Assembly: GCF_000014785.1 (NCBI RefSeq)
Contig: NC_008340.1
Coordinates: 1,020,001-1,052,000, forward strand
Origin: Alkalilimnicola ehrlichii MLHE-1
GTDB lineage: Bacteria > Pseudomonadota > Gammaproteobacteria > Nitrococcales > Halorhodospiraceae
Length of the DNA: 32,000 nt
Reading direction: 5' to 3'
How positions within the stretch are numbered: position 1 is the stretch's first letter; every line of letters begins with the position of its first letter. The translations under genes were made by a program, and so were the position numbers. The notes below the pieces were generated by a model, which ran no database searches, was not told the origin of the DNA, and worked only from the letters and a program-made list of their open reading frames with translations. Of the stretch, positions 11,543 through 25,319 are shown piece by piece.

Positions 11543-12064
11543 ATGGCCGGCATGACACCGGATCAATCCCTAATCCTCATCGGCATGCCGGCGGCGGGCA
11601 AGTCCACAGTGGGCCGCCGGCTCGCCGCCCGGCTGCAGCGTCCTTTCATCGACACCGATGCCGTGATGGAGGCGCGTTGCGGCCAATCCCTCCAGGCGCT
11701 GATGGCGGAGCGCGGGGTGGAGGGGTTCCGAGCCGCCGAGGCGCGGGTGCTGTGCGACCTGCAGCCCGCTGAGCCGGCGGTGATCGCCACCGGCGGTTCA
11801 GTGGTCTATGCCGCCCGTGGGATGGCGGCGCTCCGGCGGCTCGGCACGGTCGTCTTCCTGGACTGCCCGGTGGCGGTACTGGCGCACCGGGTCGGGGACC
11901 CGGTGGCGCGGGGCATGGTAATCGCCGCCGGGCAGTCACTGGCGGCGCTGCACCGGGAACGCCTGCCCCTCTACCGGCGCTATGCGGACCATACCATCGC
12001 CTGCGATGACGACCCCCCAGAGGTGGTGGCCGGGCGGGTGCTGCGGGTGCTGTCGCTGGATTGA
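11543..12064 (+). CDS. Shikimate kinase-fold P-loop kinase (AroK/AroL-like)
   Basis: It has the Walker A motif GMPAAGKST, then FIDTDAVME...GFRAAEARVL...VIATGGSVV, which follows the shikimate kinase pattern. I prefer the ATG at 11543 (GGAG 4 nt upstream) over the ORF-track ATG at 11504. ATG 11552 is also possible. Confidence 0.65.
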   Translation: MAGMTPDQSLILIGMPAAGKSTVGRRLAARLQRPFIDTDAVMEARCGQSLQALMAERGVEGFRAAEARVLCDLQPAEPAVIATGGSVVYAARGMAALRRLGTVVFLDCPVAVLAHRVGDPVARGMVIAAGQSLAALHRERLPLYRRYADHTIACDDDPPEVVAGRVLRVLSLD

Positions 12065-21133: not shown

Positions 21134-22384
21134 TCAGTCAGATCGGGATCGAACCGTTGTCAACGCCTCCGGATCGCGGGTCTGGGTGACCACGTCCATG
21201 ATGCGGTCGGCCCATTGCAGGGCCTCCAGGTAGGCCCCGGGGTAGCGCCGTCCGTCGGCGTCGTCCGTTTCCAGGGCCTGCCAGTGGCCTTGCTCATAAT
21301 CGCAAACCCGCTGCAGCAGGGCGCCGATGGCCCCCTCACGGTTGAGCAGGGCGCGTTCGATCGCCTGGGTCAGCGGCAGGGCCTGGACCAGCTCCGCCAT
21401 GGGCTGGTTCATCAGGGTGTCCAACAGCGAGAGCAGCCCGGCGGTGAAACAGGCCTCGGGGTTGGCGATGCCCGACTCCCGAGCCAGCAGCTCACACATG
21501 CGCGCCCGGGCCAGGGCGATGCGGCACAGCTCCGGCGGCTTGTCCTCCACCGCCGAGAGGGTGATCAGGATGATCCAGGTGCGCACGGTGCGGGTGCCCA
21601 GCAGGAGCAGCGCATTGTGCAGGGACTCGATGGGCCCGCGGGAGACCGCGGCCGAGTTGGCGCAGCGCAGCAGCCGGTAGACCAGCACCTGGTCCCGGGC
21701 GATCAACCGCTCCAGTTCCTGCAGGTCCGCGTCCGGGTCGTTGAGTTTGGCGAGCAGCGGCAGCAGCCCGACTTTGCTGCTGGCATGGCGCTGACCGGAG
21801 ACCAGGTTCGGACGGCTGAAGTAATAGCCCTGGAAGAAATCGAACCCCAGGTCGAGGCAAAGCTGGAACTGACGGTCGGTCTCGACCTTCTCGGCGAGGA
21901 GCTGCAGATCGAACTCCCGCAGGCGGCGGACCACCCGGGTCAGCGCCTCTGTAGAGGTGTCGTTGACCTCCAGTTTTACCAGGTCGGCACAGGCCAGGGC
22001 GGGTTCGTTCTCCGGCTGGTAGTCGAAGTCGTCCAGCACGATGACATAGCCCCGGTCGGAGAGGCTGCGCAGCCCGGCGAGCACCTGCTCGTCATCCAGC
22101 GCGACATCCTCCAGCACCTCCAATGCCACCTGATCGGGTGGGATGGGGAGTTCCAGCTCGCCGATCAGGTAGGGGCGGGTCAGGTTGATAAAGGCGGGCA
22201 CGTCACCGACCAGCCGCTCCAGCCCGAAATCCGTGAAGGTGTTGACCAGCAACTGCCCGGTGGCCTGATCCCCGTCGACCACATCAGCCCGATCCCGGGC
22301 GCCAGCGCGGTAAAGCAGTTCGTAGGCGACAACCTCCAATTCCCGGTTATAAATGGGTTGTCGCGCGAGAAAAATAGTGTCCAC
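21134..22384 (-). CDS. EAL + HDOD domain protein (c-di-GMP phosphodiesterase-like)
   Basis: From GTG 22382-22384: VDTIFLARQPIYNRELEVVAYELLYR (ELL variant of EAL), FINLT, LEVLEDV, VLDDFDY, KLEVN, AEKVET and FQGYYFSRP. The C-terminal HDOD pattern is ELERLIARDQVLVYRLLRCANSAAV...LLLLGTRTV. The 93 codons upstream of this GTG in the track ORF (to 22663) are translated repeat DNA. Confidence 0.85.
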   Translation of the reverse strand: MDTIFLARQPIYNRELEVVAYELLYRAGARDRADVVDGDQATGQLLVNTFTDFGLERLVGDVPAFINLTRPYLIGELELPIPPDQVALEVLEDVALDDEQVLAGLRSLSDRGYVIVLDDFDYQPENEPALACADLVKLEVNDTSTEALTRVVRRLREFDLQLLAEKVETDRQFQLCLDLGFDFFQGYYFSRPNLVSGQRHASSKVGLLPLLAKLNDPDADLQELERLIARDQVLVYRLLRCANSAAVSRGPIESLHNALLLLGTRTVRTWIILITLSAVEDKPPELCRIALARARMCELLARESGIANPEACFTAGLLSLLDTLMNQPMAELVQALPLTQAIERALLNREGAIGALLQRVCDYEQGHWQALETDDADGRRYPGAYLEALQWADRIMDVVTQTRDPEALTTVRSRSD

Positions 22385-22430: not shown

Positions 22431-22458
22431 AGTATCGTATAGATCGAATGCCTTTCAA
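22431..22458 (-). promoter_or_regulatory. Candidate sigma70 promoter for the EAL/HDOD gene
   Basis: On the minus strand this reads TTGAAA (22458-22453) - 16 nt - GATACT (22436-22431). It lies in the only AT-rich patch between the repeat array and the GTG start. This is a pattern match only. Confidence 0.25.
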
Positions 22459-22466
22459 AGGTATTG

Positions 22467-22526
22467 CCACCGTCTTCGCGAGGGCCGAAGGCTTCCCCAC
22501 CGTCATCGCGAGGGCCGCAGGCTTCC
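22467..22526. repeat. Two tandem 30-bp partial units (the first ~25 nt of the 97-bp unit)
   Basis: CCACCGTCTTCGCGAGGGCCGAAGGCTTCC (22467-22496) and CCACCGTCATCGCGAGGGCCGCAGGCTTCC (22497-22526). They are followed directly by the first full unit, which starts CCACCGTCATCGCGAGGGCCGCAGGCCCGCGG. Confidence 0.95.
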
Positions 22527-23590
22527 CCACCGTCATCGCGAGGGCCGCAGGCCCGCGGCGATCCATGCGGCGTGTGGACTGCCGCGTCGCTCCGCTCCTC
22601 GCAGTGACGTGGGGGGTGGACCCACCCCGTCATCGCGAGGGCCGCGGGCCCGCGGCGATCCATGCGGCGTGTGGACTGCCACGTCGCTCCGCTCCTCGCA
22701 GTGACGTGGGGGGTGGACCCACCCCGTCATCGCGAGGGCCGCAGGCCCGCGGCGATCCATGCGGCGTGTGGACTGCCGCGTCGCTCCGCTCCTCGCAGTG
22801 ACGTGGGGGGTGGACCCACCCCGTCATCGCGAGGGCCGCAGGCCCGCGGCGATCCATGCGGCGGGTGGACTGCCACGTCGCTCCGCTCCTCGCAGTGACG
22901 TGGGGGGTGCCCCCACCCCGTCATCGCGAGGGCCGCGGGCCCGCGGCGATCCATGCGGCGTGTGGACTGCCGCGTCGCTCCGCTCCTCGCAGTGACGTGG
23001 GGGTGCCTCCACCCCGTCATCGCGAGGGCCGCAGGCCCGCGGCGATCCATGCGGCGTGCGGACTGCCGCGTCGCTCCGCTCCTCGCAGTGACGTGGGGGT
23101 GCCCCCACCCCGTCATCGCGAGGGCCGCAGGCCCGTGGCGATCCATGCGGCGGGTGGACTGCCACGTCGCTTCGCTCCTCGCAGTGACGTGGGGGTGCCC
23201 CCACCCCGTCATCGCGAGGGCCGCAGGCCCGCGGCGATCCATGCGGCGTGTGGACTGCCGCGTCGCTTCGCTCCTCGCAGTGACGTGGGGGTGCCCCACC
23301 CCGTCATCGCGAGGGCCGCAGGCCCGCGGCGATCCATGCGGCGTGTGGACTGCCACGTCGCTCCGCTCCTCGCAGTGACGTGGGGGTGCCCCACCCCGTC
23401 ATCGCGAGGGCCGCAGGCCCGCGGCGATCCATGTGGCGGGTGGACTGCCGCGTCGCTTCGCTCCTCGCAGTGACGTGGGGGGTGCCCCCACCCCGTCATC
23501 GCGAGGGCCGCAGGCCCGCGGCGATCCATGCGGCGGGTGGACTGCCGCGTCGCTTCGCTCCTCGCAGTAACGTGGGCGGTGCGCCCGCAG
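22527..23590. repeat. Head-to-tail array of 11 near-identical 95-97 bp units, each an imperfect long palindrome
   Basis: The anchor CGTCATCGCGAGGGCCGC starts at 22531, 22628, 22725, 22822, 22919, 23015, 23111, 23207, 23302, 23397 and 23494. The periods are 97, 97, 97, 97, 96, 96, 96, 95, 95 and 97. The consensus is CCACCCCGTCATCGCGAGGGCCGCAGGCCCGCGGCGATCCATGCGGCGTGTGGACTGCCGCGTCGCTCCGCTCCTCGCAGTGACGTGGGGG(G)TG+3-4 nt. There are no unique spacers. Confidence 0.95.
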
Positions 23591-23594
23591 GGGG

Positions 23595-25319
23595 TCAGCC
23601 GCGCCCGAGTTTCAGGCCGACTTTGAGGATGCGGTTGCCCTCCATCTCCCGCACGGTGAACTGAAGGTGATCGAGGCGCACCCGGTCGCCCACCACCGCC
23701 TTGCCGCGGAACAGGTGGAGCAGGTACTCATCCAATGACTGCCCCGGGTCGACCCCCGGTGGCAGGTTGAAGCCGTAGACCGCCGCCAGGTCGCCCAGCC
23801 GCGTCTCGCCGTCCAGGGTGAATTCCCCGAAGAAGCGCTGCTCCTCCAGGTAGGCCGGCCCGGCCGGGGCGACGAACATGCGGTCGAGGAGGGGTAGATC
23901 GTCCGGCAGGCTGAGCAGGTAGACCTGATCGCCGGGCTGGAGGATGTCGCCGTCCTCTTCGCGTACCGGCGCCCCCTGCCGGAACAGGGTGAGGACCTGG
24001 GCGCTGTCCGGCAGCCGCAGGTTGTGCAGCGGCTTGAACAGGGCGGGGCTGTCGGACTTGACTCGATAGGAGACGAACTCGTAGTCCGCCTGCTGTGGTA
24101 CGTCCAGTTCCACCCGTTCCGTCTGGCCGGAGTCCGGGGGCAGTTCCAGGCCCAGCAGTCGGGCGGCGGGCGCGATGGTCCAGCCCTGCACTACCAGCGA
24201 CAGCAGCACCACGAAGAAGGCCACGTTGAAGAATTGTTCGGCCCCCGCCAGCCCCGCCACCAGCGGGAAGATGCCCAGGATGATGGGCACCGCGCCGCGC
24301 AGGCCCACCCAGGCGATGAACAACTGCTCCCGCCAGGGGAAGCGAAAGGGGGCCAGACAGGTGAAGACCGCCAGCGGCCGGGCCACCAAAATGAGGGCCA
24401 CGCCGACGATGGCCGCCTTCGGGGCCACTGGCAGCAGCTCCGAGGGGGTGACCAGCACGCCGAGCATGACGAACATGGTGATCTGCGACAGCCAGGCCAT
24501 GCCGTCGTTGAAGCGCTGGATGTTCTGTGCGGCCTGGATCCGGCGGTTGCCCACGATCAGGCCGGCCAGATAGACCGCCAGAAAACCGCTGCCGCCAGCC
24601 ACCCCGGTCGCACCGAAGACCACCAGCCCCCCGCCCAGGGCGAGCAGCGGGTACAGCCCCGGGGTCAGCGACAGGCCGTTGATGGTGTAGGCGAGCAGAA
24701 AGCCCCCGAGCACCCCTATTAAGGCCCCCAGCCCCATCTGCTGGACGAACTCCAGCGCCATGCCCCAGCCGATGCTGGTGTGCTGGCCCATGAGCAGCTC
24801 GATCAGGGCCACTGTCAGGAAGATGGCCATGGGGTCGTTGCTGCCGGATTCGATCTCCAGGGTGGCGGCGACACGCTGTTTCAGCTCCAGCCCCTTGGAG
24901 TGGAGCAGCGAGAACACCGCTGCGGCGTCGGTGGAGCCGACGATGGCCCCGATCAGGGCCGCCTCCAACCAGCCCAGGCCGAGGGCGTAGCGGGCCACCA
25001 GGCCGGTCAGGCCGGCGGTGATCACCACCCCCACGGTGGCCAGCACCACCGCCGGGCGCAGGCCGACGCGGAAGCTGCTGGTACGGGTGCGCAGGCCGCC
25101 GTCAAACAGGATGACCGCCAGCGCCAGGCTGCCGATGAGATGGGCGGTCTGGAAGTCGTCGAAGTAGAGCCCACCCAGACCCTCCTCGCCCAGCAGCATG
25201 CCGATCACCAGGAAGACCAACAACAGCGGAGCGCCTATCCTGTTGGATATGACGCTGGCCATGACGCTGACCAGCAGCAGCAGGCTGCCGAAGAATATGA
25301 CCTGGCTGGTAAAGTCCAA
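23595..25319 (-). CDS. nhaP2: K+/H+ antiporter, NhaP2/CvrA type (CPA1 family with a C-terminal TrkA-C domain)
   Basis: 574 aa. It has MDFTSQVIFFGSLLLLVSVMASVISNRIGAPLLLVFLVIGMLLGEEGLGG...FDGGLRT, followed by about 12 helices. The soluble C-terminus has GDILQPGDQVYLL (TrkA-C-like). Confidence 0.88.
   Translation of the reverse strand: MDFTSQVIFFGSLLLLVSVMASVISNRIGAPLLLVFLVIGMLLGEEGLGGLYFDDFQTAHLIGSLALAVILFDGGLRTRTSSFRVGLRPAVVLATVGVVITAGLTGLVARYALGLGWLEAALIGAIVGSTDAAAVFSLLHSKGLELKQRVAATLEIESGSNDPMAIFLTVALIELLMGQHTSIGWGMALEFVQQMGLGALIGVLGGFLLAYTINGLSLTPGLYPLLALGGGLVVFGATGVAGGSGFLAVYLAGLIVGNRRIQAAQNIQRFNDGMAWLSQITMFVMLGVLVTPSELLPVAPKAAIVGVALILVARPLAVFTCLAPFRFPWREQLFIAWVGLRGAVPIILGIFPLVAGLAGAEQFFNVAFFVVLLSLVVQGWTIAPAARLLGLELPPDSGQTERVELDVPQQADYEFVSYRVKSDSPALFKPLHNLRLPDSAQVLTLFRQGAPVREEDGDILQPGDQVYLLSLPDDLPLLDRMFVAPAGPAYLEEQRFFGEFTLDGETRLGDLAAVYGFNLPPGVDPGQSLDEYLLHLFRGKAVVGDRVRLDHLQFTVREMEGNRILKVGLKLGRG

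Follow-up and report, generated by a model that had tools for sequence, protein, structure and literature searches.

An eleven-unit tandem array of CGTC-tagged REP doublets between nhaP2 and an EAL/HDOD gene in Alkalilimnicola ehrlichii

In a stretch of 32,000 nucleotides from the Alkalilimnicola ehrlichii MLHE-1 chromosome (NC_008340.1, positions 1,020,001 to 1,052,000; below, the window), the 1.1-kb "gene-free" interval between an nhaP2-type antiporter gene and a gene for an EAL/HDOD protein is occupied by eleven head-to-tail units of 95-97 bp each. Every unit consists of two different 34-nt repetitive extragenic palindromic (REP) monomers, arranged head to head, and a G/C-rich linker. We interpret the array, with a probability of about three in four, as a tandemly amplified cluster of CGTC-tagged REP doublets that resembles the REPINs (REP doublets forming hairpins) and bacterial interspersed mosaic elements (BIMEs) of other bacteria, is largely selfish or neutral, and has grown by unequal recombination or slippage. 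It is unusually long, but otherwise an ordinary representative of a kind of repeat cluster that is already known. The less ordinary lead is provided by short truncated copies, here called stutters, and by the copying mechanism of what is a very widespread family.

Structure of the array

The full units span window positions 22532-23594 and are preceded by two truncated units of 30 bp (22472-22531). Tandem Repeats Finder (TRF) reported a period of 97 with 11.0 copies and 96% matches at 22530-23586, and a second repeat with a 30-nt period and 2.9 copies at 22467-22552. Unit boundaries were set by anchoring on GTCATCGCGAGG, which gives 11 full units. A pattern for the full 77-nt element had 10 exact matches versus 0 expected in shuffles; unit 11 escapes the pattern, as GTAAC replaces GTGAC. 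The edges of the array lie 4 nt from the nhaP2 stop codon on one side and, on the other, 82 nt away from the GTG of the EAL/HDOD gene (counted from position 22467). An earlier note on this DNA, which was based on the letters and a list of open reading frames (ORFs), had already described eleven palindromic units with two 30-bp partial copies, the two flanking genes and the 4-nt and 82-nt distances. TRF, the anchors and the 77-nt pattern bear out the former; Pfam, translation and coordinates bear out the latter. The parts of the array, with unit 1 as the example, are as follows (window coordinates).

22472-22531, plus strand: two 30-nt truncated stutter units starting at 22472 and 22502, each made up of the tag arm, 9 nt from the start of REP-A and then TTCCCCACC
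22532-23571, plus strand: eleven 77-nt head-to-head REP doublets with 18-20-nt linkers between them (TRF, anchors, alignment, exact pattern)
22532, 22629, 22726, 22823, 22920, 23016, 23112, 23208, 23303, 23398, 23495: starts of the full units, with lengths, in order, of 97, 97, 97, 97, 96, 96, 96, 95, 95, 97 and 77+23 nt
22531-22565, plus strand: REP monomer A (REP-A), with a C-GTC tag, the 28-nt body ATCGC-GA-GGGCC-GCA-GGCCC-GCG-GCGAT and the tail CCA (read from the sequence)
22566-22574: 9-nt spacer separating the two monomer tails, the apical loop of the earlier note (sequence reading)
22575-22609, minus strand: REP monomer B (REP-B), with C-GTC, the body ACTGC-GAGGAGCGGAGCGACGCG-GCAGT and the tail CCA (read from the sequence)
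22609-22628: example of the G/C linker, GTGGGGGGTGGACCCACCCC, connecting the right flank of the unit, GGGGTGGGG, to the left flank of the next, CCCCACCCC
23572-23594: terminal degenerate linker GTGGGCGGTGCGCCCGCAGGGGG, from unit 11 to the nhaP2 stop codon

Each monomer is thus composed, in this order, of a CGTC tag, a stem that begins with AT and a CCA tail, and in every unit the tags point outward and the tails inward. Read on its own strand, the tag is C-GTC in all 22 array monomers except monomer B of unit 11, where it is GTT. The two monomers differ in their interior. In REP-A, two 5-bp stems are separated by a 2x3 internal loop and the second of them is capped by a 3-nt loop, and REP-B has a 5-bp closing stem that encloses an 18-nt purine-rich segment. 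The units vary at seven element positions and in linker length, and the unit lengths of 95, 96 and 97 nt arise because the G and C runs of the linker vary. The C-rich flank of the linker recurs in other arrays, and the length of the spacer between monomer tails varies across the family.

Several other element classes were considered. A CRISPR array was ruled out because the segments between elements are the same 18-20-nt linker throughout and not unique spacers, as the earlier note had also concluded. An integron attC site was rejected since the termini do not fit attC cores, and an ordinary miniature inverted-repeat transposable element was rejected since no target-site duplications are visible in the flanks.

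Conserved pairing and predicted folds

The earlier note had drawn each unit as a single hairpin with outer arms (10 of 12 positions complementary, plus a G-T), inner arms (9 of 11), an 11+11 interior and a 9-nt centre. All of these parts can be read in the sequence, as can GCCGCGGGCCCGCGGC, a 16-mer that is perfect in units 2 and 5, and a further hairpin in the linker, and the single hairpin is indeed the RNA fold of lowest energy. The pairing that is conserved, however, lies within the monomers. Among 153 distinct monomers of the family, the closing 5-mers were ATTGC/GCAAT in 136, ATCGC/GCGAT in 10 and ACTGC/GCAGT in 4, leaving 3 that were not Watson-Crick. In an independent set of 76 metagenomic dimers, selected by their inner arms only, the 5-mers were Watson-Crick within both monomers in 65 cases and between monomers in none (0/76), and a single long hairpin was rejected as the conserved structure on this basis. 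The tag-side 5-mers of these dimers were mostly ATCGC (71/76) and GCAGT (69/76). The mismatches between the arms disappear once each half folds on itself (ATCGC/GCGAT, ACTGC/GCAGT). In monomers of the REP-A type, the small inner hairpin was found with 35 different stems, mostly with GNA loops.

Two inverted REPs and their short spacer are predicted to fold as one hairpin, as in REPINs: by minimum free energy, the 77-nt unit forms one long hairpin, imperfectly paired, of -40.8 kcal/mol (z = -2.4), compared with -11.8 and -16.8 kcal/mol for the monomers folded apart. With the G/C flanks included, the 97-nt unit reaches -57.7 kcal/mol (z = -3.6), and two units together reach -122.8 kcal/mol (z = -5.0). 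The fold of the linker (-12.1 kcal/mol) is ordinary for its composition (z = 0.29). These results match the REPIN picture, in which the module that is conserved is the REP monomer, and the hairpin is formed by the doublet.

Copy number in strains and relatives

A second, complete A. ehrlichii genome (CP184336.1, 3,194,001 bp) carries the array at this site as well, with 7.0 units of 96 nt and flanks identical to those in MLHE-1, and we therefore consider it to be real and variable in copy number. Truncated 30-nt units, of which MLHE-1 has two, are absent from CP184336.1. Both strains have the same first unit (GTTAC tag, 17A) and the same last unit, and both carry the 53A variant and the GGGTCC linker type, the latter being single in one strain and triple in the other. 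Adjacent units tend to carry the same linker variant. Shared end units together with clustered variants are the pattern of internal duplication and deletion. The earlier note had recommended checks for assembly error and for copy-number variation; the presence of distinct unit variants at the same site in CP184336.1 answers the first, and the count of 11 versus 7 units answers the second.

That the array arose as an artefact of assembly, or that it codes for a repetitive protein, is scarcely credible in our judgement, even though short-read assemblies fail to cross it, ORFs of 205-209 aa traverse it, and another array of this genome that resembles it has been annotated as the protein Mlg_2297. 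The array is a reproducible contig break point in short-read assemblies: in the Logan assemblies L001 (11781), L129 (2778) and L251 (11765), all from A. ehrlichii-like genomes, the contigs end at most about 55 nt past the nhaP2 stop codon. An artefact is rejected, since the units differ from each other and two independent complete genomes have the array, with distinct unit variants, at the same site. A coding repeat is rejected because the period of 95-97 nt is variable and not a multiple of 3, so that the reading frame of an ORF shifts from unit to unit. The array holds ORFs of 75-209 aa on both strands (for example 22727-23356 on the minus strand and 22856-23473 on the plus strand), and these pseudo-ORFs have no Pfam domain and almost no homologues. 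Its long stop-free stretches are of a kind that gene callers can mistake for genes.

Alkalispirillum-type relatives lack the array. In Alkalispirillum mobile-type genomes and metagenome-assembled genomes (MAGs), the antiporter is 93% identical and the synteny is the same, but the spacer downstream of it has 132 nt and no REP. In this spacer, a promoter-like site (TTGACA-16-AATACT) comes after a hairpin that is small and A/T-rich. In L123, the hairpin reads caaaaacaac...gttgtttttg (11744-11781) and is located just upstream of the promoter-like site; a simple scan did not flag it as a terminator. In L129, a relative with 96% identity, the stop codon is directly followed by linker and REP, after which the contig ends.

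Membership in the CGTC-tagged REP superfamily

CGTC-tagged REPs have been defined by an unpaired CGTC or TGTC tag, a stem opening with AT, a 3-nt tail (consensus CCA) and an arrangement mostly as head-to-head dimers (PMC3733652). We place the array doublet in this superfamily because the tag, the AT-initiated stem, the tail and the head-to-head dimers agree with that definition: the array monomers have a terminal CGTC tag, an AT stem start with a CCA tail, and are found as head-to-head dimers. The continuous 8-9-bp stem with a 4-5-nt loop that characterizes the families CGTC-1 to CGTC-4 is not present. The array family is therefore inside the CGTC-tagged REP superfamily and outside its four described families. 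The authors who described the superfamily expected that members with bulges had escaped them (PMC3733652). Intragenic CGTC-1, -3 and -4 elements encode the peptides VIPAKAGI, SFPRKRES, VIAGLDPAIH and VIPWLDHGI (PMC3733652), from which continuous stems of 8-9 bp follow for those published elements. None of the pseudo-peptides of the array family (VIAR, SLRG, HCEE, LAMT) is in the list of intragenic elements in that paper. At the gathering score, neither the window nor any of 18 family loci matched an Rfam family, and the array had only chance-level hits (E >= 0.8); the comparison with covariance models proposed in the earlier note thus had a negative outcome. A full-text literature search with sequence strings of the element returned only unrelated primers.

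The family was surveyed in one genome per species, using the two 12-nt arms as query, and at least 120 loci (L002-L121) were found. The matches listed include Bacteroidota, Chloroflexota, Alpha-, Beta- and Gammaproteobacteria, Verrucomicrobiota, anammox Planctomycetota, Omnitrophota, Margulisiibacteriota and two candidate-phyla-radiation lineages. Berkelbacteria, Falkowbacteria, Gemmatimonadota and Calditrichia are named among these matches. Bacteria of more than 15 phyla, among them candidate-phyla-radiation lineages, share a nearly invariant 12-nt tag arm, GTCAYYGCGAGG. The family consensus is Y-GTCATTGCGAGG, a variable part, CGAAGCAATCC, a variable part, GGATTGCTTCG, a variable part, and CCTCGCAATGAC-R. 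In 153 family monomers the base before GTC was C in 76 and T in 65 cases, and the tails were CTC (54), CCA (38) and CCC (24). The head-to-head arrangement was also seen in sets of 125 and 76 family dimers. In 122 flanks, the preceding base was a pyrimidine in 118 cases and the base after was a purine in 114. Many soda-lake metagenome contigs carry single dispersed copies of the A/B doublet, and related soda-lake bacteria have it both scattered singly and in small arrays. The earlier note had linked pseudo-peptides in the translations to a widespread dispersed palindromic family; the loci from the arm scan, across many phyla, and the pseudo-ORF Mlg_2297 agree with this.

Among the matches listed, the phyla that have the GTCAYYGCGAGG...CCTCGCRRTGAC doublet are far more numerous than the five from which CGTC REPs were reported in 2013. 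A scan of 2.9 million viral contigs found the doublet in only 9 stretches (L252-L260), so that phages do not stand out as its carriers. One viral contig, IMGVR_UViG_3300022552_000049, carries four copies of the doublet.

Other arrays and truncated copies

The earlier note took such elements to be single dispersed copies and not concatemers. This view needs correction, since arrays of 2-4 units were found at other loci and tandem clusters have been published. An array of A/B doublets with a period of 95 nt is present in L140 (2.9 copies) and in L203 (at least 3 copies at the contig end), the latter downstream of rpsT and beside murJ and ribF. L248 has an array of a related doublet (89 nt, 3.9 copies), related doublet arrays are also present in L212, L150, L122 and Comamonadaceae MAGs, and L066, too, carries an array. 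Copy numbers on short-read contigs are lower bounds. In MLHE-1 itself, the 182-aa "hypothetical protein" Mlg_2297 is a pseudo-ORF over a second array, which was deduced from the protein. The window array is longer than the other arrays found and than published clusters, yet the same kind of object.

Stutters with a period of 21-30 nt flank full doublets in many unrelated taxa. A stutter copy combines the tag arm GTCAYYGCGAGG with a few REP-body bases and a short piece of flank. In high-GC proteobacterial copies the flank segment is C-rich (like CCCCACC), and stutters are sometimes symmetric, on both sides of the doublet. Examples are found at the following loci.

L069: 7686-7760
L095: 24-90 and 152-226
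L036: 1744-1856
L042: 1887-1944
L190: 183-329
L217: 337-439
L240: 6179-6284

Single doublets are often exactly centred in an older inverted repeat (L067 3604-3743, L089 924-1062, L029 2989-3095, L044 3053-3152). As some of these inverted repeats are terminator-like, the centred position suggests insertion into hairpin loops. In Lacinutrix venerupis (L016 2002-3247), REP tag arms enclose each of two neighbouring ORFs, which are similar to one another and about 205 aa long.

Origin and growth of the array

According to the explanation that we favour, a single doublet would have arrived in the 3' region of nhaP2 after the split from Alkalispirillum, and the doublet and its flanks would then have been multiplied by unequal recombination or replication slippage. 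The array would now behave as a minisatellite, and would be largely selfish or neutral.

Growth by repeated transposition, in which a nuclease or transposase acting at the CGTC tag would have mobilized the doublet again and again and left the stutters as abortive products, strikes us as unlikely. It would account for the dispersal of the family in many genomes, often at the centre of older palindromes, for the near invariance of the tag arm across phyla, and for the recurrence of truncated tag-arm stutters beside full dimers in many taxa. In the array, however, each unit was duplicated together with its linker and flanks, and units resemble their neighbours most, as unequal crossing-over predicts. 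When ORFs bracketed by REP arms were collected from 240 loci and clustered in a search for a transposase, no family recurred, and the literature, too, reports no dedicated transposase for CGTC REPs (PMC3733652).

A related proposal, which we regard as somewhat less probable still, is that array and stutters are footprints of an uncharacterised and still active CGTC-REP copying mechanism, in which a conserved host enzyme or an unrecognised nuclease would nick the tag and make both tandem doublets and 21-30-nt partial copies. If this were true, the A. ehrlichii locus, with 11 versus 7 units and stutters in one of the strains, would be a tractable place to catch the mechanism.

Some observations weigh against the explanation that we favour. 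The 28-nt body with its internal loop misfits the four published CGTC families. There is no dispersed copy outside the array in the 32-kb MLHE-1 window, which leaves a high copy number in A. ehrlichii itself a supposition. The truncated stutter units are not obviously products of simple unequal recombination. The intra-monomer pairing could partly reflect common descent from one master doublet rather than structural selection. Finally, transcription of the array and all functional effects considered in the next section are inferred from E. coli REPs.

Flanking genes and possible effects on expression

Both flanking genes are on the minus strand, and the array lies in the 3' flank of nhaP2, whose stop codon is at 23595-23597. 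The antiporter and GyrA are identical to the MLHE-1 proteins.

23595-25319, minus strand: gene for an nhaP2-type K+(Na+)/H+ antiporter (ABI56275.1) with Na_H_Exchanger, TrkA_C and CorC domains (Pfam, protein identity)
22431-22458, minus strand: promoter-like site TTGAAA-16-GATACT for the EAL/HDOD gene, downstream of the array
21134-22384, minus strand: gene with EAL and HDOD domains and a GTG start (Pfam, translation)

In CP184336 a gene of 416 aa is called at the position of the EAL/HDOD gene. The promoter-like site of this gene has a counterpart, the TTGACA-16-AATACT already mentioned, in the Alkalispirillum-type locus without the array. The earlier note had considered that the array might form the 5' region of the EAL/HDOD transcript. 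It is probably not the leader, because the conserved promoter-like site sits downstream of the array.

A 19-nt near-palindrome, AATGCCTTTCAAAGGTATT (window 22447-22465), overlaps the -35 hexamer of the promoter-like site and may be an operator. It is less symmetric in CP184336, with GGTACC instead of AATACC.

A simple scan found no terminator-like site between nhaP2 and the array. As no intrinsic terminator precedes the array, nhaP2 transcripts probably enter it. At its 3' end, the nhaP2 mRNA would then carry very stable hairpins in a stack, with about -58 kcal/mol for every 97 nt. If they behave as E. coli REPs do, they should block 3' exonucleases and so protect the 3' end, and they should impede read-through into the EAL/HDOD gene, which would keep its own promoter. 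On the mRNA strand, a 5-bp hairpin begins 9 nt past the nhaP2 stop codon, and the first long hairpin can begin within about 15 nt. For E. coli REPs located less than 16 nt from a stop codon, a translational effect has been reported (PMC12306157). Structure that begins within 15 nt of the nhaP2 stop codon may lower translation of nhaP2 or impede its termination.

These arrangements bring up the possibility that the array is a selected device, that is, an insulator or spacer whose variable copy number tunes nhaP2 or the EAL/HDOD gene (the latter related to cyclic di-GMP, c-di-GMP) as in a contingency locus. The array starts 4 nt past the nhaP2 stop codon and lies immediately upstream of the EAL/HDOD promoter-like site, it differs in copy number between two strains of one species, and it occupies the position of a short AU-rich hairpin in relatives. 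Yet the doublet also forms arrays at unrelated loci (L203 downstream of rpsT, and Mlg_2297), close relatives do without the array, promoter and leader are identical in the 7-unit and the 11-unit strain, and a 96-nt period fits no known phase-variation logic. We therefore consider selection for such a role rather improbable.

Even less probable, in our estimation, is that the array acts mainly at the DNA level, as a BIME-2-like platform for gyrase, nucleoid proteins or cruciforms that would absorb transcription-induced supercoiling at the end of nhaP2. Alternating inverted palindromic units are a parallel to E. coli BIMEs, gyrase is reported to cleave BIME-2 (cited in PMC12306157 and PMC3733652), and the array is indeed at the 3' end of a transcription unit. 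On the other hand, it has no sequence similarity to the E. coli palindromic units, and the mechanism would matter only in REP-rich species (PMC3733652).

Significance

For annotation, the largely neutral repeat cluster that we favour accounts for a 1.1-kb stretch without genes, for spurious ORFs such as Mlg_2297 and for a break point of short-read assemblies. With 11 versus 7 units, the locus is also a ready strain-typing marker for A. ehrlichii. The CGTC-tagged REP superfamily is extended to a bulged family with a 28-nt body, very widespread and apparently uncatalogued, which can build long BIME-like arrays. Should the array influence what becomes of nhaP2 mRNA, or act as an insulator for the c-di-GMP-related gene, it would offer a natural case, from outside the enterobacteria, on which to test REP function.

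Comparison with known repeat systems

The closest relatives of the array are the elements of the CGTC superfamily (Di Nocera, De Gregorio and Rocco, 2013, BMC Genomics 14:522; PMC3733652). The two have in common the unpaired C/T-GTC tag, the A-T/T-A start of the stem and the 3-nt tail, and they are also alike in forming mostly head-to-head dimers, often heterodimers, in extragenic positions between co-directional genes, and in having no known associated transposase. REP-A and the CGTC-3 type of R. palustris share CGTC-ATCGC...GCGAT-CCA, where the CGTC-3 sequence was inferred from the published peptide VIAGLDPAIH. The array body differs by its 28 nt, with a 5-bp closing stem, an internal loop and then a small hairpin or a GCGRAGC-like motif, whereas the published CGTC families have a continuous stem of 8-9 bp and a loop of 4-5 nt. 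Clusters were rare for CGTC elements, although REP dimers reiterated in tandem together with flanking DNA were described, and Alkalilimnicola was not among the genomes analysed (PMC3733652).

In the REPINs of Pseudomonas fluorescens SBW25, as in the array, two inverted REPs make a long hairpin, and near-identical doublets form ordered clusters together with their flanks. The largest of these tandem clusters consists of four REPINs and is over 700 bp long (Bertels and Rainey, 2011; PMC3116915). SBW25 REPINs differ in being of the GTAG type and tied to REP-associated tyrosine transposases (RAYTs); the array has 11 units in about 1.1 kb and no known link to a RAYT.

Mycobacterial interspersed repetitive units (MIRUs) are minisatellites that share with the array tandem units of tens to about 100 bp, a position between co-directional genes and a copy number that varies between strains. 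Unlike the array, MIRUs are not palindromic REP doublets, and some of them couple the translation of flanking ORFs.

The E. coli BIMEs resemble the array in that two types of palindromic unit alternate in orientation, with short conserved motifs between them, at the 3' ends of transcription units. Their palindromic units are of the GTAG-3 type and unrelated in sequence, while the tag of the array is CGTC. The roles of BIMEs in protecting mRNA 3' ends, attenuation, gyrase binding and translational down-regulation near stop codons are carried over to the array as hypotheses; binding of integration host factor, gyrase and DNA polymerase I has been shown only for the E. coli elements. The array would work in the way of a BIME, but it does not belong to that group.

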